From positions 1,595 through 65,594 of the forward strand of contig JAFQPM010000025.1 in NCBI GenBank assembly GCA_017411745.1: DNA of 64,000 nucleotides, read 5' to 3'. Position 1 is the first letter of the stretch; every line of letters begins with the position of its first letter. The notes below the pieces were generated by a model. The model saw only the letters and a program-made list of their open reading frames with translations, did no database searches and was not told the DNA's origin. Positions 5,324-18,539 of the stretch are shown in pieces. Both the position numbers and the translations under genes were made by a program. The stretch is from Clostridia bacterium (GTDB lineage: Bacteria > Bacillota > Clostridia > Oscillospirales > CAG-272).

Positions 5324-6286
5324 TTAGTTGATAGTGATCTTAATATCTCCCGTGTCGGTGTATATCTCGCATATACCGCCAGTAGTCGTGTGAGGAAGAT
5401 CAACGTCACCCGTGTCAGTATGGTATATGAATACTTTTTCCGAGAGCAGAGAGCCCTTAACGTCGCCAGTGTCGGTCATAATAAAGAGCTGGGCGGCGTC
5501 ACATCCGTCAAGCTTTACGTCACCCGTGCTTCTCTCAACGGAGAGCACTTCGCCTACGATCACGTTTTTCAGAATCATATTGCCCGTGCTGCCTCTTGAC
5601 GAGAGATTTTCGCAGATCACGTCTGTAAGAGTTGTTTTTCCCGTGCTTACCGCAATTTTGATCTCGCCGTCGCATTTTACGTGAGAAGCAACGATATTGC
5701 CCGTCGAGACAGAAATATCAAGCTCCTTTGCGGATATATCTTCAACGCAAACGTTACCCGTGCTCATCTTGATCCTTATATCACCCGATGCGGAGGCAAA
5801 ATTCTTTACGTCACCCGTATCCGTGGAGATGTCGATCTTTTCAAATTTGAGCTCCTTGGGTATTTCAACGTCACCCGTATCTGATTTCAGCAAAAGCTGA
5901 CCGTATTCGCCTTTCGGAATGTAAACGGTTATACTTGGTGAGTTAAAACCGATGCCTATATGCTCGTACCATTTTCTCGTGTCGACGACCTTTATTGTGA
6001 GCGTACCGTCCTTTACCGTGACCGAGTGCTTCATATTGGTTTGCTCGTAGCAGCTGACCGAGCAGCTTGAGTCTTCGGAAGGAACGAATTTAACGTCGGT
6101 AGTATCGACGTCGATCGAGATAGCAGAGAAGCCTTCGGTTATTTCATATTCATTCGTTACGTATTTATTTGTAGATAATTTTGTAAAATCCCATTTTAGC
6201 ATTGCCATCACGCCTCCAAAAACGACCGCTCCGATCAGTACGAGAGAAGCGGCTATAACTAGCCAGATCTTCATTGCCTTGCTCAT
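5324..6286 (-). CDS. DUF4097-family protein (membrane-anchored, repeated TGDV/TGNV beta units)
   Basis: An N-terminal TM segment is followed by repeated DTGDV / STGNV / STGDV units. Start set at ATG 6286 (AGGAG upstream), which overlaps the upstream stop as ATGA. Confidence 0.75.
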   Translation of the reverse strand: MSKAMKIWLVIAASLVLIGAVVFGGVMAMLKWDFTKLSTNKYVTNEYEITEGFSAISIDVDTTDVKFVPSEDSSCSVSCYEQTNMKHSVTVKDGTLTIKVVDTRKWYEHIGIGFNSPSITVYIPKGEYGQLLLKSDTGDVEIPKELKFEKIDISTDTGDVKNFASASGDIRIKMSTGNVCVEDISAKELDISVSTGNIVASHVKCDGEIKIAVSTGKTTLTDVICENLSSRGSTGNMILKNVIVGEVLSVERSTGDVKLDGCDAAQLFIMTDTGDVKGSLLSEKVFIYHTDTGDVDLPHTTTGGICEIYTDTGDIKITIN

Positions 6287-6885
6287 TCTGCTTTCTCCTT
6301 TCTTACAAAACATTTTTTAACACCCAAAGCAAGCTTTTTGGTAAGCAATATAATGCCTTTGGTTGCTTCGTGGCAGCCGAAAAACATAAAGATCGCAAGT
6401 CCCGCGCAGACAATAGCAGCACCGATCATTGCAACGCCTACAAGCGCGTTGTCGAATATAGCAAACACAATGCCGGCAAACGCAACTCCAAGGGCGGATG
6501 CGGCAAGTGCAGCGAAGATTGCCCAGACAGAAACGATCAGAGACCAGAGCACCACGTAGAGCGATAGGATCACCACGAATGCGGCAACAGCAAGAGAGAG
6601 CCATATCGGAGAACCGAGTATCAAAAGCACGATCTCCCAAGCCTTCATTCTTCTTTTCGGCTTGATCCTTTCCTTTGCGATCTTTGCAAAGGGAATATCC
6701 GATATTATCTGTGCCGAGATCTCGTCCACGGATCCAACGCCTGCAACGGCGTCCTCCTCGCTCAAACCGTCTTCTATACGGTCGTCGATCATTTCGCTGT
6801 AAAAGGCAAGACGTTCTTCAAGCTCTTGCTTCGGCAGTCCGACGAGATCTGCGCGAAGCTTGTCGAGAAATTCTTGTTTAAGCAT
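6283..6885 (-). CDS. DUF1700-family membrane protein (PadR-associated)
   Basis: MLKQEFLDKLRADLVGLPKQELEERLAFYSEMIDD is the typical DUF1700 N-terminus. The C-terminal half has TM helices. It lies between PadR and DUF4097, as in the common three-gene operon. Confidence 0.8.
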   Translation of the reverse strand: MLKQEFLDKLRADLVGLPKQELEERLAFYSEMIDDRIEDGLSEEDAVAGVGSVDEISAQIISDIPFAKIAKERIKPKRRMKAWEIVLLILGSPIWLSLAVAAFVVILSLYVVLWSLIVSVWAIFAALAASALGVAFAGIVFAIFDNALVGVAMIGAAIVCAGLAIFMFFGCHEATKGIILLTKKLALGVKKCFVRKEKAE

Positions 6886-7198
6886 TTTTCGAGTCCTCCT
6901 TGGTTATGAATTGGTAGATAGACATGACCTCGCGCCACTCGTTCTTGAATTCCTCGATGCGCTCAAGACCTGCCTTTGTAATATGATAATATTTTCGTAA
7001 TCTTCCGTTATGCTCTGCGGTTCGGACGGTCAGCATTTTCGCCGTTTCCAATCGTTTTAAGATCGTATATAGAGTGGATTCCGACATTTCCGTATATGGC
7101 TTCATATCTTTTATGATTTTGTAGCCGTACGAATCCTCGTCCTTGATAGCGGCTAATAAGCAAACGTCGAGTATTCCGCGTTTTAATTGAATATCCAT
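6878..7198 (-). CDS. PadR-family transcriptional regulator
   Basis: YGYKIIKDM ... STLYTILKRLE ... RKYYHITKAGLE form a winged-helix signature. Start moved to ATG 7198 (GGAG 6 nt upstream). The longer ORF reaching 7285 runs through a leader whose paralogue at the window end has a stop in that frame. Confidence 0.85.
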   Translation of the reverse strand: MDIQLKRGILDVCLLAAIKDEDSYGYKIIKDMKPYTEMSESTLYTILKRLETAKMLTVRTAEHNGRLRKYYHITKAGLERIEEFKNEWREVMSIYQFITKEDSKNA

Positions 7199-7332
7199 AT
7201 AAATCTCCATTCCGCCGCCGGCGACAGCACAAATAGCAATCGATGAATTTTGCTGAGAAGGCAAAATTCGCGCGTGAAAAAGCATGCGTAACCGTTAGAA
7301 AGAAGTAACTTTTACGCTATACCCCTCCTTAC
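7199..7332 (-). promoter_or_regulatory. Conserved ~130-nt 5' leader of the PadR operon (copy A)
   Basis: This is the transcribed region between the -10 box and ATG 7198. Most positions are identical to 63879-64000 on the + strand. It contains the palindrome AATTTTGC-N7-GCAAAATT and a block CTATTTGTGCTGTCG. Confidence 0.6.
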
Positions 7333-7339
7333 GCAATAC

Positions 7340-7368
7340 ATCATATCACGAAGTATTAATTTTGTCAA
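7340..7368 (-). promoter_or_regulatory. Promoter of the PadR-DUF1700-DUF4097 operon
   Basis: On the minus strand: TTGACA (7368-7363), 17-nt spacer, TATGAT (7345-7340). Confidence 0.65.
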
Positions 7369-7387
7369 TACGTTTTTGCAAATTTTT

Positions 7388-7427
7388 TGAAAAGAAAAAG
7401 CGCCAAGCGGCTTTTGCCGCTTGGCGC
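7388..7427 (-). terminator. Rho-independent terminator of the SDR gene
   Basis: A perfect 12-bp stem, GCGCCAAGCGGC (7400-7411) with GCCGCTTGGCGC (7416-7427). It is followed on the minus strand by a U-rich tract. Confidence 0.85.
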
Positions 7428-7442
7428 AATGCAATCTAAATA

Positions 7443-8207
7443 TTACAGAGTAGAGCCGAAATCGGTAACGATGGTCTGTCCTGTGATCGCTCTCGACTCG
7501 TCGGAAGCGAAGAAGAGAAGCATATTTGCCACGTCGTCGGGCATGCAGGGCTGAACCTTGAGGTCGTTGTGCTTCATCATCTGACCAAAGATGTTCATAT
7601 CCATGTTGGAGGGATTCATTCCCGCAACCATGGGGGTCACGATAGTGCCGGGACAGATCGCGTTGCAGCGCACGTTGGTGCCTGCAAAACGGAGCGCTGT
7701 GTGACGGGTAATACCGATAACAGCCGCCTTGGAGGCAACGTAAGCCGCGCCGCCGCAGCCCATAACGCCCGCTACCGAAGCTACGTTAACGATAGAGCCG
7801 TAGCCCGTTTTTGCCATCTCTGCGCTGATCTCGCGCATCATGCACATAGTGCCCTTGGTGTTGATGTCTATAACGCGGTTCATATCATCGTCGGTGAAGC
7901 TGTCTATCGCCTTGAGTCCCTCGTCAAGAACACCTGCGTTGTTGATAAGGATATCGACCTTGCCGAACGCTTCAAGAGTTGCATCAAGAACTCTCTTTGC
8001 GTCCTCGACCTTGGAGATATCACTGACAACGGGGAGTACCTCTCCGCCTGCCGCGCGGATCTTTTCGGCAACGTCAAGAAGGGGAGCTTCGCGGCGACCG
8101 GTAATAACTACCTTTGCGCCCTCTGCGGCAAATTTTACTGCGGTTGCCGCGCCAACGCCCGAGTTTCCACCTGTGATAATTGCTACTTTGTCTTGTAAAC
8201 GGTTCAT
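7443..8207 (-). CDS. Short-chain dehydrogenase/reductase (SDR) family oxidoreductase
   Basis: Motifs TGGNSGVG, NNAG and YVASKAA (YxxxK) are present. Start set at ATG 8207, with GGAGG 5 nt upstream. Confidence 0.9.
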   Translation of the reverse strand: MNRLQDKVAIITGGNSGVGAATAVKFAAEGAKVVITGRREAPLLDVAEKIRAAGGEVLPVVSDISKVEDAKRVLDATLEAFGKVDILINNAGVLDEGLKAIDSFTDDDMNRVIDINTKGTMCMMREISAEMAKTGYGSIVNVASVAGVMGCGGAAYVASKAAVIGITRHTALRFAGTNVRCNAICPGTIVTPMVAGMNPSNMDMNIFGQMMKHNDLKVQPCMPDDVANMLLFFASDESRAITGQTIVTDFGSTL

Positions 8208-8363
8208 ATTAGCCTCCATTCCGCCGCCTGTGGCGGCATAAATTTTAATTTGTATCTGGTTTTATTGTAACATAAAAGTCGGGAAAATACAAGAGGGGTG
8301 CAATAAATAACAAATATTTCTACTGCCAAGTTTATGAGTTTTTCTGACAAAATCTAATCAAAA

Positions 8364-8405
8364 TAGAAAAAAATCACCGCAAACGTAAAAACATTTGCGG
8401 TGATT
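8364..8405 (-). terminator. Terminator closing the AT-rich three-gene operon
   Basis: Stem AATCACCGCAAA (8372-8383) pairs with TTTGCGGTGATT (8394-8405). It is followed on the minus strand by a run of U (A-run on the + strand at about 8365-8373). Confidence 0.8.
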
Positions 8406-8471
8406 TGGCTTTGTATTATTTTTTGTTTTCTTTTACATTGTCAAAGAGATGTCAAAAGGATCGTAAGTGTT

Positions 8472-9635
8472 TTACTTGTTTCCTTTTGCCCTGTTATGAG
8501 TTTTGCAGAGCATTTGGCAGTTGCTTATATCCGTTGCACCGCCTTTACTCCAAGCGGTAACGTGGTCGGCATCCATTTCGGTAATCTTCCAAATGCGGTT
8601 TTTGTTGTTATCTGCTCCCAAAGCACACAAGGGGCAGTTAGAAAGATTCTGTTGCTTTGCCTGTGTGGTCTGCTGTGTGTAAACGGTCTTTTTAGTGGGC
8701 TCGTCAAACACTCTTATGTTTAGAAGTTTGTTATCGGCGCAACCACCGAGAATGTACTCATAAACGCCTTTCTTGTCTTTAACGTAAAAGTCGGAATACA
8801 ATTCTTTGAGCTTTGAAGATACTTCATCAGGAGCGTAAGCGTTTGTGTGGTACTGCTCGTAGAATTCGCCCCACGGCAGACCTCGCATTTCGCTTTCTAC
8901 ATCAATAAACACACTTGACACCCAATCTATAACGCTGGTGAAATAAGCCTTAAGCTCATTGATATTATCGTCATAGCGGTGTTTGCTCATGTAATCATCA
9001 ATATTGCCTTTGCTCACCCAAGACAACGCTGTACGCAAATAATCCTGTCTTATCACGCTACCAGATATGTATGCACTCCATTTCTGGATGTTGGCGTTCT
9101 GGCTGTTGGAAAATTCCTCTTTTGCTTTAGTGACAAAAGGGCCAGAGTGGATAGCGTTGGAAAGCTCCTGCTCGTTAAGGGGTATTCCTGCAATATTGAT
9201 TGTCTTAAACCACTCTTTGATTTCGCTTTCTGTACCCTCACAAATATAGATTGTTAGCTTGGTCTGCATTATTTTGTCCTGCAGATCTTTGGCAAGACCA
9301 GAGAAATATCTCGGTATGCCGTTGCTGTCATTGATGGCAAATTTGCCTGTTACGTATCGTCCAAAGCTGGTTATACGCTGTTGTCCGTCCAAAACCTCAT
9401 ATTTATCCTCTGCCACCTTTGTGAAGTAGATAAGTCCGAGAGGATAACCCTTGAGGATGGAGTCAATAACAGCCACATCACGCTTTCCGTCAGCGTAGAT
9501 ATAGTTACGCTGATATTCGGGCTGAATAGTCAGTTTGCCAGAAAGACCGAACAAACCTTTGCCCTCATATTCGTTATAGACAAAACCTTTACATATATCT
9601 GCAATGGTTATGTCGGTTACTAATGTGGTAATCAT
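8472..9635 (-). CDS. DUF262 (ParB-like NTPase, GmrSD N-domain type) fused to a C-terminal HNH nuclease
   Basis: DGQQRITS is the DUF262 DGQQR motif. The C-terminus reads CPLC ... [12 protein letters not shown] ... [10 protein letters not shown] (HNH). Start at ATG 9635 with AAGGAAGGAG upstream and a 4-nt ATGA overlap with the methyltransferase stop. Confidence 0.8.
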
Positions 9636-10825
9636 TTTATAGCTCCTTCCTTTACAAAATCTTCTGGGTGCAACTTTATCCATTCATCCGTATATCGTAT
9701 CAAAATGCGAGAAAATGGAATTTTGGCATTGCCATCACTATCGTAATAGCACAGCATCTTCATACCCTTTGTATAGTGTCCTTTTCCACCTTGTTGTCTA
9801 TATACATTCAAAAATTCTTCTGGCATTCTTTCTATGCCTACGACAATATTTTCGTCTTCTCTTTCATAACCCAACAACTCAAATTGTTCGCAACAGTAAG
9901 TGCCCATAAATGATTTGGGTACACCCATTATGCCTTTATAGTCTTTGGGAATAGCATCGGAATACGGAACATCCAAGGCATCAAATGTTATGTATTTGGC
10001 GTACGGTTTTCCGTTAACTTCTTTGTGTTTGCTGAATTTAATGTTATCTTCCATAGTCATCAAACTCATTGGCTGATGACGGCGACCGTGCTCAATATTA
10101 GTAAACCAAACAACGCCAGAAACACGTATCATGCCTTCTCTGTGGTCACTGGCAGTTGCATAATCTGTGTAATATTTGTTGATGAAATGAGCCGCACCGC
10201 CCTTGAAACCTCTGCCGAGCCACATTTTATTTTTCATAATCAAAGGAAAAACTTCTTTGTATGTAATCGCATTTTGATTTCCTATGATTAAAAATTGCTT
10301 ATCTGCTTCAACAATCCAAGACAAAAATTCTTTGAATAGGGAAAAAGGGGGATTGGTTATGATAATATCCGCTTCATCTCTTAACGCTTTTACTTCTTCG
10401 CTCCTAAAATCTCCATCACCCTCCAAATAGTGCCATTCCAAATCATCAATGTCTATCACACCAGATTTGTTGTTATCTCTGGTGAGAGTAAAGATTTTTC
10501 CATGTGTATTAGTCTTGCTTTCGTCGAATTGCGGAGACTCCATTTCAAAAATAGAAAGCTGGTAGCCCTCTTTGATATTTCTGCTCTCTATAGCGTAGCT
10601 GGTACTAATAATCTTTTTTAGTCCAAAATTTTCAAAATTTTGAGCAAAGAAGCGAGTAAAGTTGCTCCATTCAGGATCATCACATGGAAGCAAGATTGTC
10701 TTGCCCTTAAACACATCGGAGTTATACTCCAAGTAGGCATTGACTTCTCTCTGTATATCTTCGTATTGCGTATAAAACTCGTCGTTTTTTGCGTTCTTCG
10801 CTTCGGAAAGTTTTTTGTTTGCCAT
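9632..10825 (-). CDS. EcoRI-methylase-family N6-adenine DNA methyltransferase
   Basis: N-terminal [10 protein letters not shown] plus motif [17 protein letters not shown] lies 5-6 nt upstream of ATG 10825. Confidence 0.75.
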
Positions 10826-10844
10826 TTTTTACCTCAATTACTCA

Positions 10845-11636
10845 TCAAAGTTTAATCGTTTCAATCTGTTTCGAGTGCATAGTCAAAAAAATTTTTTTGT
10901 TTGTTTGGAGTTGCTTTATAAATAGCGTTGTTTTTTGCACAAACACCTTGCCAGCAATATTCTGCATAGTTATAAAAACGTCAATAGGAGCTCCCACTTC
11001 TTTTTTATCTATGTTGAAATATAACCATTCCGAAAACGGAGTGTGTTCTTCTTCCTCTACTGTTCCCCCGTTTTTTGATTTAGAATGCGTTATAATCATT
11101 TCACGAAGTCCAGCTATGCAAGTTAAATTGTAATTGATAGAATTTTTGCTATTATTATCTATCATTTCAAGTTGATTAAATATAACATTTTGTATCTCGT
11201 CTTTTATGTATAAAGCTTCAACTTCATTTTTGCTTAACTCAATTCGACTTAATAAAATGTTTTGAATTGGATATTTCCCCAAATTTCTTACATATAATTT
11301 TACTTTTAGTTTGTCGTTCGCATCATCGCACGCAATAACAGAGGATCTTTCTCTCAAGATATCTAAATATGGTATCATTTTTTCTTCTTCAATTTTTAGC
11401 ATCCTATCACTGACTTCATTCGCCTTGATAGAAATATTGACAGCGATACAACTTAAAAAAACTGAGGAAACAACAGAAATAGCAGTGCCACAGTAAGCTA
11501 ATATATCAGCTTTTTTTAAGGGTTCGCATTTAGTGATTCCATTAATAACAAATGGAGTAACGATTATACCTACAATCGCGAAAAAAAGTATAATGATTGA
11601 TAAAATTAATAAAAACGTACTTGATTTGTTTTTCAT
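10845..11636 (-). CDS. Hypothetical protein: two N-terminal TM helices plus a beta-rich C-terminal domain
   Basis: TM1 is FLLILSIIILFFAIVGIIVTPFV and TM2 is ILAYCGTAISVVSSVFLSCIAV, followed by about 190 soluble residues with no motif I recognise. It is the first gene of the operon, 19 nt upstream of the MTase start. Confidence 0.6.
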   Translation of the reverse strand: MKNKSSTFLLILSIIILFFAIVGIIVTPFVINGITKCEPLKKADILAYCGTAISVVSSVFLSCIAVNISIKANEVSDRMLKIEEEKMIPYLDILRERSSVIACDDANDKLKVKLYVRNLGKYPIQNILLSRIELSKNEVEALYIKDEIQNVIFNQLEMIDNNSKNSINYNLTCIAGLREMIITHSKSKNGGTVEEEEHTPFSEWLYFNIDKKEVGAPIDVFITMQNIAGKVFVQKTTLFIKQLQTNKKIFLTMHSKQIETIKL

Positions 11637-11674
11637 ATGTCAAAATCCTATCTGTTTTGGTGTCATTTGACATT

Positions 11675-11703
11675 ATTATACCATAGAATGATAAAATTTT
11701 CAA
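11675..11703 (-). promoter_or_regulatory. Promoter of the AT-rich three-gene operon
   Basis: On the minus strand: TTGAAA (11703-11698), 17-nt spacer, TATAAT (11680-11675) preceded by TGg (extended -10). Confidence 0.65.
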
Positions 11704-11777
11704 GAGAGAATAATCATTTAACCGATTTTGAGAAAGATATATTAGAAACTTGTTGTTGAAGCAGAAATCAAATATAC

Positions 11778-11810
11778 AAAAAGCGGCTTAAAACAATAGT
11801 TTCAAGCCAC
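11778..11810 (-). terminator. Probable terminator of the GMP synthase gene
   Basis: On the minus strand, stem GTGGCTT pairs with AAGCCGC (one G-U pair, 14-nt loop) and is followed by UUUUU. Confidence 0.5.
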
Positions 11811-11822
11811 TTAAAATCTATA

Positions 11823-12824
11823 TTATTCCCACTCAATGGTTCCCGTGGGCTTGGGAGTCAAATCGAAGAGAACGCGGTTAATTCCTTCCACCTCGTTGGT
11901 GATGCGTGCAACGATCTTATGAAGAACCTCGTAGGGTATCTCCTCAATGGTTGCAGTCATAGCGTCCTTGGTGTTGACGGCGCGGATTATCGCGGGCCAA
12001 CCCTCGTATCTGCTTTCGTCCTTTACGCCAACACTCTTGATGTCGGGAATAGCGATGAAATACTGCCAAACCTTTTCGGCAAGACCGCAGTTGTCGAATT
12101 CCTCGCGGAGAATCGCGTCTGCCTCGCGGAGCGCGTGGAGACGGTCGCGGGTGATCGCGCCAAGGCATCTTACTCCAAGACCGGGGCCGGGGAAGGGCTG
12201 ACGGTAAACCATAGCGTGAGGCAGGCCAAGCGCCTCGCCAACAACTCTTACCTCGTCCTTAAAGAGAAGCTTTACGGGCTCAACGAGCTCAAACTGAAGG
12301 TCGTCGGGAAGTCCGCCAACGTTGTGGTGGGACTTGACTGCCTTTTTGCCCTCTGCCTGCTTGATGCTCTCGAGAATGTCGGGGTAGATAGTGCCCTGAG
12401 CCAAAAATTCAACGCCCTCAAGCTTTCTTGCTTCGTCGGCAAAGACCTCGATGAACTCCTTTCCGATGATCTTTCTCTTGCTTTCGGGGTCGCTGACGCC
12501 TGCAAGAAGATCAAGGAAACGGTCGGTTGCGTCTACGTATATAAGGTTTGCGTCGAGCTGATTTCTGAAGACCTCGATAACGTTTTCGGACTCATTCTTA
12601 CGCATAAGACCGTGATTGACGTGAACGCATACGAGCTGCTTGCCGATAGCTTTGATAAGGAGTGCTGCCACTACCGAGGAGTCCACACCGCCCGAGAGAG
12701 CCAAAAGAACCTTTTTGTCGCCAACCTGAGCGCGAACCTCTTTGATCTGCTCTTCGATGAAAGCGTGCGCGAGCTCGGGAGTTGTTATACGTGCCATTGT
12801 TTCAGGACGAATAGAATTCTGCAT
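11823..12824 (-). CDS. guaA: GMP synthase, ATP-pyrophosphatase plus dimerisation domains only (no glutamine amidotransferase domain)
   Basis: SGGVDSSV P-loop, KSHHNVGGLP, and the C-terminal PKPTGTIEWE typical of GuaA. Start at ATG 12824 (AAAGGA upstream). Only about 25 residues precede the P-loop. Confidence 0.85.
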   Translation of the reverse strand: MQNSIRPETMARITTPELAHAFIEEQIKEVRAQVGDKKVLLALSGGVDSSVVAALLIKAIGKQLVCVHVNHGLMRKNESENVIEVFRNQLDANLIYVDATDRFLDLLAGVSDPESKRKIIGKEFIEVFADEARKLEGVEFLAQGTIYPDILESIKQAEGKKAVKSHHNVGGLPDDLQFELVEPVKLLFKDEVRVVGEALGLPHAMVYRQPFPGPGLGVRCLGAITRDRLHALREADAILREEFDNCGLAEKVWQYFIAIPDIKSVGVKDESRYEGWPAIIRAVNTKDAMTATIEEIPYEVLHKIVARITNEVEGINRVLFDLTPKPTGTIEWE

Positions 12825-12984
12825 ATGTTTTCCTTTCTTGTTTTGGCAGGGGATACCCTGCAATTCGCTAAAAACTTAAGGATAGATAATCATTGATCGA
12901 TCACGAGTCTTAAGAGAGCTCATCACCCTTTTAAAACCCAAACCGTTTTTATCTTTTGCTTTCCTTGGGGAAGTTCTTTGGAGA

Positions 12985-16202: not shown

Positions 16203-17063
16203 TTAATAGATGCGACTAACGTTAATTTTTATTTTTGCTCCTTCGCCCGCGAGCTTAACGATTACTTCCTTGTTGGAAACATCTTTCAGAGTAATAGATC
16301 GAGATTGATTAACGTCAACCGAGCAATAGTATTCTCCGTCGATAATAATTACTATTTCGGCATTTCCTGATTCCACGGAGCTGTCGATGTTAAGAGTAAG
16401 GGTATTTCCCGATATTTTGGTTGCTTGAAGAATTACAATACCGTGTAATTTTCCGAACGACCTACTGATATGATCGTAATCATAATCCCTAAGCCTCGTT
16501 CCGACGATGTTTGTGTGGTATCCCGAATACCTTTGCGATGACATATAGCTTCTGTAGTTGTTACCTTTGTTCAAAATGTCGTCACGCGTTATTTCAGTCA
16601 GGGCATAATTATCAGGTCCGTTTGTGTCAACAAAGTCGGATTCCGATGCCAATGAAATGATAACGGCGAGCGCAATCAAAATTGTAACAACTATGGGAAT
16701 GGTAATACACAAGGCAATAACTAAACCGTTTTTGGATCTTTTGTATCCGCAGCTTTCAAGATAGTTATGCAAGATTTGCCTTACCTTTTCCGAGTCAAAC
16801 TCCTCTTTTGACCCATCCGAGCAGTATGAAACGGCTTTTTTTCGAACTCCGTATTGTCTGCGGTATCCGTCAAAGTCATAAGTTTTTTCAGTATAGGTTT
16901 TATCATCCTTTAACTGTGCGACACAGCGAAACGTTGACTCTCTCAAGTGTTTGCCGCGATATTTTGCTTCGAGTATTATTTTATCGCCTTCAACAGTCAC
17001 AGTATAATTTTTATCACTACTGTTCAATGCAAGCGCATACTGTAAAACTTCTTGTTTTGTCAT
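16203..17063 (-). CDS. Hypothetical single-pass membrane protein
   Basis: Start at ATG 17063, with the extended SD AGAAAGGCGGTG upstream. The central TM is LVIALCITIPIVVTILIALAVIISLA. The gene is AT-rich and has no recognisable domain. Confidence 0.55.
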   Translation of the reverse strand: MTKQEVLQYALALNSSDKNYTVTVEGDKIILEAKYRGKHLRESTFRCVAQLKDDKTYTEKTYDFDGYRRQYGVRKKAVSYCSDGSKEEFDSEKVRQILHNYLESCGYKRSKNGLVIALCITIPIVVTILIALAVIISLASESDFVDTNGPDNYALTEITRDDILNKGNNYRSYMSSQRYSGYHTNIVGTRLRDYDYDHISRSFGKLHGIVILQATKISGNTLTLNIDSSVESGNAEIVIIIDGEYYCSVDVNQSRSITLKDVSNKEVIVKLAGEGAKIKINVSRIY

Positions 17064-17262
17064 GATGGCACCGCCTTTCTGTTTCATAGTTTAATTGTAT
17101 CACAAATTTATTAATATTTCAACCCGTTTCTTCGTATCTCTCGAAATGTCAAAGCCGGCTTTACGGAACCCAAAAGGCGAGGAAAGAAGGACTTAGAGCC
17201 TTAGCACAAAAATTGCAAGCAATTTTTGGCGGAGGCGTTCTGCATAAACCATACTACACTTG

Positions 17263-17305
17263 CCAAAACAAAAGGGATGGTCAACGACCATCCCTTTTGT
17301 TTTGG
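17263..17305. terminator. Very strong bidirectional hairpin terminator
   Basis: A perfect 20-bp stem, CCAAAACAAAAGGGATGGTC with GACCATCCCTTTTGTTTTGG, and a 3-nt loop. Confidence 0.8.
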
Positions 17306-17482
17306 GACTGTTTTACCAATTTGTAGTTTCGCATCCAAATCACGCCGTAGCGCAAGTTTTTTCAAAAACGATCCGTGGTTTTTGGTCGGTGGATAGACTT
17401 ATCCCTTGGCGATGATGGGAGTTGCACTTGACCGCTATCTTCCGGGGTGCTGCTCCATGCTTGCAAACGAAGCTATGTATAA

Positions 17483-17764
17483 CTATTCTTTTTTTGAAAA
17501 CTTATTGAAGTGTTTTTCGAGTTTTCTCTCTATGAGAGGAGTATATTTTTTATCCAAAGCCTTGAATACAAAATGTAAGATGATTTCCAAAATGATGAAT
17601 AATGCAAAATATCCTCCAATTGCAATCGCGTAATATTGCCATGAAAACGAATTTAGCAGACCTATAACGAGAAATAATGCCGGAATAGCTAAAATTTCAA
17701 TAATATCCCAAATCACCATACCGACATAAAGAATATTAGCGATAAAACCTAATATCTTTTTCAT
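17483..17764 (-). CDS. Small (93-aa) three-TM membrane protein
   Basis: Start at ATG 17764 (AAGGAGG upstream), which overlaps the upstream stop as ATGA. The sequence is hydrophobic: ILGFIANILYVGMVIWDIIEILAIPALFLVIGLL ... YYAIAIGGYFALFIILEIILHFVF. Confidence 0.6.
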   Translation of the reverse strand: MKKILGFIANILYVGMVIWDIIEILAIPALFLVIGLLNSFSWQYYAIAIGGYFALFIILEIILHFVFKALDKKYTPLIERKLEKHFNKFSKKE

Positions 17765-18108
17765 TTTGCGCCCTCCTTTGCTGTGTTGATGGAGGCGATC
17801 AACATTCTGCGGATCGTTCCGCATTGATTATACAAATCTTTTGCAATCTCTCGGTCAAGTAATTCTGATTTTACAAATAATTTAAGCCAATATTCCGTTT
17901 CATAGCACTCTTTCAATGCAATTTGAAACTTGGCAACAAAGTCAGCTTTACTATGAGCATAATTCGCTTCGTGAATATTGGCACCTATCGAAGTAGAGGA
18001 ACGTTCCAACTGATTGACAAGAGAATAGTGACCTTTTATGCCGTCACACATTTTGATAACTTTAACCGCAAAGTCTGTGGATAGGTCACGAAGCTTTGAA
18101 TCTGCCAT
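17761..18108 (-). CDS. Four-helix-bundle protein (23S rRNA intervening-sequence protein / Avd-like family)
   Basis: LVNQLERSSTSIGANIHEA ... DFVAKFQIALKECYETEYWLKL is the typical PF05635-type signature. The extended SD is AGAAAGGCGGTG. Confidence 0.8.
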   Translation of the reverse strand: MADSKLRDLSTDFAVKVIKMCDGIKGHYSLVNQLERSSTSIGANIHEANYAHSKADFVAKFQIALKECYETEYWLKLFVKSELLDREIAKDLYNQCGTIRRMLIASINTAKEGAK

Positions 18109-18160
18109 AATAACACCGCCTTTCTGCCGTTATTATATCATAAAATCGCTAGCTTTTCAA

Positions 18161-18425
18161 GTGAAATATTCGGCTTGCGCCGAATGTGAAATAGTTTTTT
18201 GCGTACTCGGAGTGGTACTCTGAGTTTTTGATCTTTAGTGAAATATTTTGCCTTGCGGCAAAATGTGAAATAATTTCCTGGCGGAAATTGTGAAATATCT
18301 CCCGCCGCCTACGGCTTTGGTCGATGTGAAATAAAATTCGCCTCCTCACGCGCGAAGCGCATTTCACATGCGAAGCATATTTCACGCTCCGAAGGAGTAT
18401 TTCACTCGCCGCAGGCGAATTTCAC
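18161..18425. repeat. Divergent array of mini-hairpins each linked to GTGAAAT/ATTTCAC
   Basis: GTGAAAT occurs at 18161, 18186, 18238, 18265, 18290 and 18326. ATTTCAC occurs at 18361, 18379, 18399 and 18419. Between the copies are short stems of differing sequence that all pair: ATTCGGC/GCCGAAT, ATTTTGCC/GGCAAAAT, AATTTCC/GGAAATT, GCGC/GCGC, ATGC/GCAT, CTCC/GGAG and TCGCC/GGCGA. Confidence 0.85.
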
Positions 18426-18427
18426 TG

Positions 18428-18461
18428 AAAAAAGCCATCCGCTTACGCGAATGGCTTTTTT
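18428..18461. terminator. Bidirectional terminator immediately 3' of tRNA-Trp
   Basis: Hairpin GCCATCCGC ttac GCGAATGGC (18434-18455, one mismatch), flanked by A6 and T6. Confidence 0.75.
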
Positions 18462-18463
18462 CT

Positions 18464-18539
18464 TGGCAGGGGCAGAAGGACTTGAACCCACGACCCTTGG
18501 TTTTGGAGACCAGTACTCTACCAACTGAGCTATACCCCT
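18464..18539 (-). tRNA. trnW: tRNA-Trp (anticodon CCA), 76 nt with encoded CCA
   Basis: The minus strand reads AGGGGTATAGCTCAGTTGGTAGAGTACTGGTCTCCAAAACCAAGGGTCGTGGGTTCAAGTCCTTCTGCCCCTGCCA. It folds as a cloverleaf with anticodon loop CUCCAAA. Two non-Watson-Crick pairs were noted (C27-A43 and U50-U64). Confidence 0.85.

Follow-up and report, generated by a model that had tools for sequence, protein, structure and literature searches.

A predicted restriction-modification pair with a DUF262–HNH nuclease, encoded downstream of an uncharacterised membrane protein in a variable spot of a Clostridia genome

To our knowledge, nucleases that carry a DUF262 domain have so far been known either as modification-dependent enzymes (GmrSD, BrxU) or as a sensor of phosphorothioates (SspE). 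Reviews place the domain in GmrSD, BrxU, SspE, Menshen, Dazbog and PD-T4-2 only. In the characterised proteins, DUF262 senses DNA modification and hydrolyses nucleoside triphosphates (NTPs) (PMC10952713, PMC12065111). The type IV enzymes GmrSD and BrxU join an N-terminal DUF262 domain with a DGQQR motif to a His-Me finger nuclease in one polypeptide (PMC4619093, PMC10952713), and SspABCD-SspE links modification of the host DNA with restriction by a DUF262 nuclease (PMC10952713). Here we describe a cassette of three genes in a 64,000-nucleotide stretch of DNA from a Clostridia bacterium (contig JAFQPM010000025.1; this whole stretch is called the window below). In order of transcription, the genes encode a membrane protein with two transmembrane (TM) helices (gene 1), an EcoRI-family adenine methyltransferase (gene 2, M) and a nuclease with DUF262 and HNH domains (gene 3, R). 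The core of the cassette is an ordinary, known kind of restriction-modification (R-M) system; what is new is the accessory membrane gene and the pattern of conservation within the pair.

Gene 2 matched EcoRI_methylase of Pfam (2.1e-115, 386 bits with a cut-off of 26) and the MTase_II model of PADLOC (2.4e-78). Gene 3 matched GmrSD_N in its N-terminal part (3e-19), HNH (PF01844) in its C-terminal part (3.3e-8) and the PADLOC REase_II model PDLC03418 (7.5e-92, profile positions 12–372 of 372), and its motifs DGQQR (residues 83–87), CPLC (334–337), DH (357–358) and HN (380–381) are intact. No match to DUF1524 was found in gene 3 at E values up to 0.1, and neither the nuclease nor the methyltransferase significantly matched a PDB sequence. 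Because genes 2 and 3 match MTase_II and REase_II, PADLOC already covers the pair, on sequence criteria, among its type II R-M systems, with adjacent and separate M and R genes, a methyltransferase of fitting family with its motif IV, and a catalogued nuclease with intact active-site motifs. NCBI names the two products ‘adenine-specific methyltransferase EcoRI family protein’ and ‘DUF262 domain-containing protein’. The original prediction, made from the letters of the window, had recognised an EcoRI-family N6-methyladenine (m6A) methyltransferase and a DUF262–HNH nuclease, and Pfam confirmed both. It had also taken the trio for an uncharacterised defence module that matched no named R-M system. 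PADLOC, a check that it had itself proposed, assigned two of the three genes to a known system, which for those two refutes the claim by the prediction's own standard, and the description as uncharacterised now applies only to the membrane protein.

Compared with type II systems that combine an HNH nuclease with a PF13651 methyltransferase, the cassette shares the adjacent, translationally coupled M and R genes, the EcoRI-family methyltransferase with NPPF and the zinc-ribbon HNH nuclease, both of which match the type II models of PADLOC. It differs in the N-terminal DUF262 domain of the nuclease (ParB/Srx-like, with DGQQR), which suggests control by NTPs, in a nuclease that is more conserved than the methyltransferase, and in the extra membrane-protein gene upstream. 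The architecture of the nuclease, an N-terminal DUF262 domain with DGQQR and a His-Me finger nuclease in one polypeptide, is that of GmrSD and BrxU; unlike these, it has an HNH domain (PF01844) instead of DUF1524 and is about 200 residues shorter. It also differs from stand-alone GmrSD-type enzymes in that it always lies next to a methyltransferase where the locus can be read, and this constant pairing implies that methylation would protect from cleavage rather than provoke it. With SspABCD-SspE the cassette would share the coupling of host DNA modification to a DUF262-nuclease restriction component, a coupling that is putative here. The mark would be m6A placed by one enzyme, whereas Ssp installs phosphorothioate through four proteins, and the nuclease domain is HNH in the cassette and DUF1524 in SspE.

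In sequence from the gut and from plasmids, the methyltransferase/DUF262–HNH pair counts among the commoner R-M-like modules. More than 8000 relatives of the nuclease were found in metagenomes at E<=1e-10 (the best 120 are 79–89% identical to it), and 111 plasmid records carry the nuclease. Wherever its position could be read, which was in the window and at 18 of 20 loci from four phyla, the methyltransferase gene lies directly upstream of the nuclease gene, and at several loci the two overlap by 4 nt; L011 and L012 were excluded from this count, since their contigs are cut inside the methyltransferase gene (L numbers denote the loci compared). M stands directly 5′ of R, without gene 1, on plasmids of Enterococcus faecium, Pediococcus pentosaceus and Rhodococcus ruber, and the same holds for metagenome contexts sampled through three of the nuclease relatives; gene 1 is missing from the pair in L009–L022. 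As judged by this distribution, M and R make up a two-gene module that is very common on its own, and a mobile one, seen on plasmids of several phyla and in variable chromosomal spots. At one such locus (L009) the module lies between a CD-NTase/Cap15 pair (617–2106) and a DUF6602/SMODS-AGS_C pair (6276–8341), with an integrase adjoining; these surroundings are a clear defence island.

The complete order TM-M-R was seen in the window (to which L025 is 100% identical), in L001/L002, in L003–L005, in L031 and in L032, and in L006 and L051 the TM gene is followed by a methyltransferase gene that is cut by the contig end. Co-occurrence of the trio in other genomes, which the original prediction had named as a test of the module, was thus found. 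Gene 1 is rare: it has 19 close homologues in a set of 5.8 billion proteins and none among plasmid and phage records. The trio with its promoter nevertheless recurs in at least six contexts, and gene 1 has stayed stably linked to the pair in several bacterial lineages. Proteins related to gene 1 at 50–60% identity occur without R-M neighbours (L007, L008, L033–36, L050). Because the nuclease has more than 8000 homologues against these 19, and the pair occurs without gene 1 in L009–L022, gene 1 appears dispensable for the M-R pair.

Our preferred reading, which we regard as probable though well short of certain, is that the cassette consists of an R-M pair, in which m6A protects the host and the DUF262–HNH protein cuts unmarked DNA, and an accessory membrane protein. 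What the analysis itself shows is gene structure, family matches, distribution, linkage and selection; the enzymatic steps are drawn from family membership and motifs. The EcoRI-family enzyme would methylate host adenines at N6 within its own recognition sites, and the DUF262–HNH protein would cleave incoming DNA that lacks the methyl mark, using its His-Me (HNH) active site, with the ParB-like, NTP-binding DUF262 domain probably controlling the cut. The ATGA overlap would couple translation such that the nuclease is made only along with the methyltransferase. Gene 1 would be an accessory 2TM and beta-sandwich protein that joined this R-M lineage and is read from the single conserved promoter of the cassette; its most likely place of action is the membrane, where it could exclude phages or cause abortive infection on its own or else assist the nuclease, and the R-M pair would work independently of it. 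If this is true, a DUF262 member restrained by adenine methylation would widen the known roles of the domain.

How the three proteins have diverged bears on this reading. When the window is compared with L001, L003 or L032, synonymous differences have reached or nearly reached saturation (pS, the proportion of differing synonymous sites, is 0.60–0.86). The nuclease nevertheless retains 94–95% amino acid identity in these comparisons, with a ratio of non-synonymous to synonymous divergence (dN/dS) of 0.023–0.028 at a dS of about 1.4, and is under very strong purifying selection. Gene 1, with a dN/dS of 0.17–0.21, is likewise a functional gene under purifying selection. Over the first 245 residues or so the L003 methyltransferase is 92–97% identical to that of the window, and over the rest 19–64%; the C-terminal half of the methyltransferase is visibly mosaic between loci. 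In the same comparisons the methyltransferase gene has a pS of 0.81–0.86, above the saturation expectation of 0.75, with protein identity of up to 95%, which suggests a shift of codon usage between hosts.

Several observations weigh against the preferred reading. A classical type II nuclease works without an NTP-binding domain and, as a rule, evolves faster than the methyltransferase it is paired with, whereas here the nuclease was the more conserved of the two in 53 of 55 locus pairs (11 loci). The nucleases of L003, L031 and L032 are 99% identical to one another, while their methyltransferases are 64–82% identical overall and, in two of the three comparisons, 47–59% identical in the C-terminal half. 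A simple type II model agrees poorly with a nuclease that is more conserved than its methyltransferase, and together with the DGQQR domain this pattern casts doubt on NTP-independent cutting at a fixed unmethylated site. The AlphaFold2 (AF2) model of the nuclease is poor (pLDDT 58, from a shallow alignment); its fold matches to ParB, BrxU and an HNH nickase are weak (E of 0.005 at best) and echo the Pfam result. Among open-access papers, none was found to name the methyltransferase/DUF262–HNH pair or to describe its properties. Finally, the spacing between gene 1 and the methyltransferase gene is 19–30 nt, and the sole conserved promoter of the cassette lies 5′ of gene 1, so gene 1 may be more than a passenger. 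The conservation pattern is compatible with one shared specificity served by interchangeable methyltransferases, and also with a nuclease whose discrimination depends on the methyltransferase or on the mark that it leaves; the pattern offers a direct test of whether the nuclease holds the specificity. If the nuclease does not, the cassette would be a non-classical type II system in which a low-specificity, NTP-hydrolysing DUF262–HNH nuclease tells self from non-self through an exchangeable methyltransferase or its mark, in the manner of type III R-M or SspABCD-SspE. We give this a modest chance, and it can hold together with the preferred reading. The excess of conservation in the nuclease, the near-identical nucleases beside methyltransferases that differ in their presumed target-recognition part, and the intact NTP-binding motif argue for it, as do the modification sensing and NTP hydrolysis of DUF262 in characterised proteins (PMC10952713, PMC12065111). 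The mosaic pattern is no proof of different target sites, however, because methyltransferases that are 45–60% identical often have one common specificity; moreover, the C-terminal half is assigned to recognition from the order of motifs, a complex of methyltransferase and nuclease is hypothetical, and PADLOC files the family under type II.

The recurrence of gene 1 raises an alternative that we consider unlikely, namely an integrated three-gene defence system in which the 2TM protein is obligatory, either as a membrane effector triggered once the nuclease or the methyltransferase has sensed foreign DNA or as an anchor that holds the nuclease at the point of DNA entry. Synonymous sites are saturated, yet the arrangement promoter-TM-M-R has been kept in at least six genomic contexts, which speaks for integration, as do the position of the only conserved promoter, the purifying selection on gene 1, a 42%-identical relative of gene 1 directly upstream of a different DUF262 protein, and the weak match of gene 1 to the PycTM model of PADLOC (6e-4, residues 4–136). 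Yet gene 1 is absent from nearly all occurrences of the M-R pair (gene 1 has 19 homologues, the nuclease more than 8000, and none of the 111 plasmid records contains gene 1), gene 1 relatives at 50–60% identity lack the R-M pair, the non-synonymous divergence of gene 1 is about 6–8 times that of the nuclease, and gene 1 has no fold or family match to a known effector. Less likely again is the fullest version of such a unit, in which an exchangeable m6A self mark, a highly conserved, NTP-driven nuclease that reads this mark instead of a target sequence and a 2TM sensor, anchor or suicide effector that couples both to the membrane would act as one. Very improbable, in our judgement, is a type IV nuclease of the GmrSD/BrxU kind, dependent on modification and functionally unrelated to the methyltransferase. 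Its DUF262 and His-Me nuclease domains do repeat the GmrSD architecture (PMC4619093), and there are weak matches to BrxU in fold (E 0.02) and sequence (E 0.32). Against this stand the methyltransferase gene directly upstream at every readable locus in four phyla, several times with a 4-nt overlap, the classical HNH domain in place of any DUF1524 match, and a length of 387 aa, far short of the roughly 580-aa BrxU chain in PDB.

The three open reading frames (ORFs) are co-directional on the minus strand (Table 1), with 19 nt between genes 1 and 2 and a 4-nt ATGA start/stop overlap between genes 2 and 3. The mechanical ORF list takes gene 3 up to an ATG at 9683; we place its start at 9635, because all 120 listed homologues are 386–390 aa long. 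In a scan of 8200–11900 the promoter upstream of gene 1 was the top match to the consensus, although promoter-like sites as a whole were not above shuffled sequence (13 found, 11.8 in shuffles). The motif CTCTTGAAAA-N15-19-TATAAT lies upstream of the TM gene in the 9 cassette loci with upstream sequence and in 0 of 42 other loci; 8 of the 9 have the full trio in the sequence covered, and L051 ends inside the methyltransferase gene. The stretch 8301–8404, with the terminator hairpin, is 97–98% identical in the same-species contigs L024, L027, L029 and L030 despite their other cargo, and the sequence 3′ of the nuclease stop codon is unrelated among loci. Because same-species contigs with other cargo share the sequence up to 8404, the terminator, which ends the operon here, is part of the recipient locus and not of the cassette. 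The gene positions, both junctions and the TTGAAA-17-TGgTATAAT promoter of the original prediction were thus borne out; of its description of the operon as self-contained, the promoter that travels with the cassette stands, and the terminator has to be given to the recipient.

Table 1 Positions of the cassette, its signals and related features (window coordinates unless a locus is named).
Feature	Position	Strand	Remark
Strain-specific insert	8301–11776	.	Sits between SDR gene and guaA-like gene
Gene 1, 263-aa two-TM protein with C-terminal beta-sandwich	10845–11636	-	Family uncharacterised
Gene 2, EcoRI-family N6-adenine DNA methyltransferase, 397 aa	9632–10825	-	NPPF at residues 158–161
Gene 3, DUF262 (ParB/Srx-like) and zinc-ribbon HNH nuclease, 387 aa	8472–9635	-	Putative restriction component
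Sigma-70-type promoter, TTGAAA-17-(TGg)TATAAT	11675–11703	-	Top consensus match, 11/12 + TG
Intrinsic-terminator-like hairpin and T run	8362–8406	-	16-bp stem 8406–8371, terminator scan
guaA-like gene upstream of cassette	11823–12863		
guaA/guaA-like gene upstream of cassette	L001 3800–5332		
guaA/guaA-like gene upstream of cassette	L051 3334–4335		
DUF3990 gene (PDC-M42A, 2.5e-46), helix-turn-helix gene (PDC-M42B, 7e-8) and TM relative	L045 807–2869		TM relative 32 nt downstream

The limits of the insert were set with same-species contigs, which were found by look-up with the exact SDR protein and have flanks 95–98% identical to the window. Homology to one of them (L023) ends at 8300 and restarts at 11777, giving an insert of 3.5 kb that begins directly past the own terminator hairpin of the guaA-like gene (11812–11781). 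L023 has a single gene of 433 aa in place of the cassette. In L024 and L026 this side of the SDR gene is occupied by genes for an integrase, a Rep protein, an ABC transporter and LytTR/DUF3021, and the 8 kb covered there include no guaA-like gene. From the different contents of the gap between the guaA-like and SDR genes in other genomes of the species, we conclude that the segment is a horizontally acquired cassette in a variable spot. The G+C content (GC) is 0.367 in the insert, 0.54 in the SDR gene and 0.53 in the guaA-like gene; by gene it is 0.30 for the TM gene, 0.38 for the methyltransferase and 0.43 for the nuclease. No integrase or transposase was found inside the insert, and a search for flanking direct or inverted repeats gave none that was convincing. 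Horizontal acquisition, as first proposed from base composition, is thus upheld by the different cargo and by a GC of 0.37 against 0.53, and the reported lack of a visible integrase, transposase or flanking repeat also stood. The early estimate of about one third G+C inside suits genes 1 and 2 and is somewhat low for gene 3. Within the species, the gap between the guaA-like and SDR genes is a strain-variable hotspot. The 433-aa protein of L023 has a weak RPN7/TPR-like match under the Pfam cut-off.

In three lineages the cassette directly follows a guaA or guaA-like gene (product identity to the window 100%, 87% and 56%), which suggests a preferred site and insertion targeted to the neighbourhood of the guaA 3′ end. 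Between guaA and the cassette, L001 has a NikA-like mobilisation gene. The guaA-like product of the window has 346 aa with NAD_synthase and GMP_synt_C domains, without a glutamine amidotransferase domain; it is a split-type GMP synthase subunit.

Gene 1, which the preferred reading treats as accessory, has hydrophobic stretches at about residues 3–37 and 43–72, and its AF2 model (pLDDT 79) shows long helices at 2–35 and 42–85 followed by a beta-sandwich at about 90–260. It has no match to a Pfam, NCBIfam or PHROG family, nor to a helix-turn-helix (HTH) family, so the operon contains no controller gene of the C-protein type. The PADLOC PycTM match scored 18 bits. A fold search against PDB gave generic matches only (an Ig-like sandwich of Asf1 at E 0.01 and Kir channels at E 0.06, TM-score <=0.37), and the best matches in a viral library were uncharacterised membrane proteins of similar size (E 1.7e-4, TM-score 0.5). 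Like PycTM of Pycsar and Cap15 of CBASS, gene 1 has N-terminal TM helices before a small beta-rich soluble domain and relatives among defence genes; unlike them, it has no cyclase or other signal-producing gene in its cassette and no significant family or fold match. No pyrimidine cyclase was found in the insert or its flanks.

A profile search with gene 1 returned 717 representatives, most of which share just the N-terminal 100 positions or so, with TM1, a PxIINE motif, TM2 and an ANxISxRxLxxEE helix. Ten distant representatives checked against Pfam and PADLOC had no match, and the roughly 700 representative clusters to which gene 1 belongs make up a family not yet described. The view of its neighbourhoods comes from a few look-ups, among them a scan with a narrow alignment that gave a single locus. 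In one, a HipA-like gene is followed by the TM relative, which is the 42%-identical one named above, then by a 593-aa DUF262 protein (PADLOC HEC-05, 1e-33) and a type I R-M system. In another, DUF3990 and HTH genes (PDC-M42A/B) precede the TM gene and a serine recombinase follows, and in a third a DUF4391 gene overlaps the TM gene. In these contexts the family keeps company with defence and mobile genes, with varied partners, so that the membrane protein may reasonably be put forward as a candidate new factor of phage exclusion. The TM relative in L045 shares just the N-terminal part with gene 1 and may be an unlisted third gene of the PDC-M42 candidate system.

Palindrome counts gave a weak hint of a recognition site at most. 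CTAG, GGCC and CCGG are depleted in hosts both with and without the system; CATG has an observed/expected ratio (O/E) of 0.39 in trio hosts and 0.75–0.83 in the others, a weak hint given that the host sets differ in taxonomy. In the window itself GGCC (O/E 0.17), CCGG (0.27) and CTAG (0.14) are strongly depleted, and since related hosts without the cassette show the same depletion, other restriction pressures are indicated. Elsewhere in the window, a second low-GC stretch (17001–18500, 0.38–0.39) holds the genes for a 113-aa hydrophobic protein and a 115-aa protein, the latter with the look, by eye, of a four-helix bundle.

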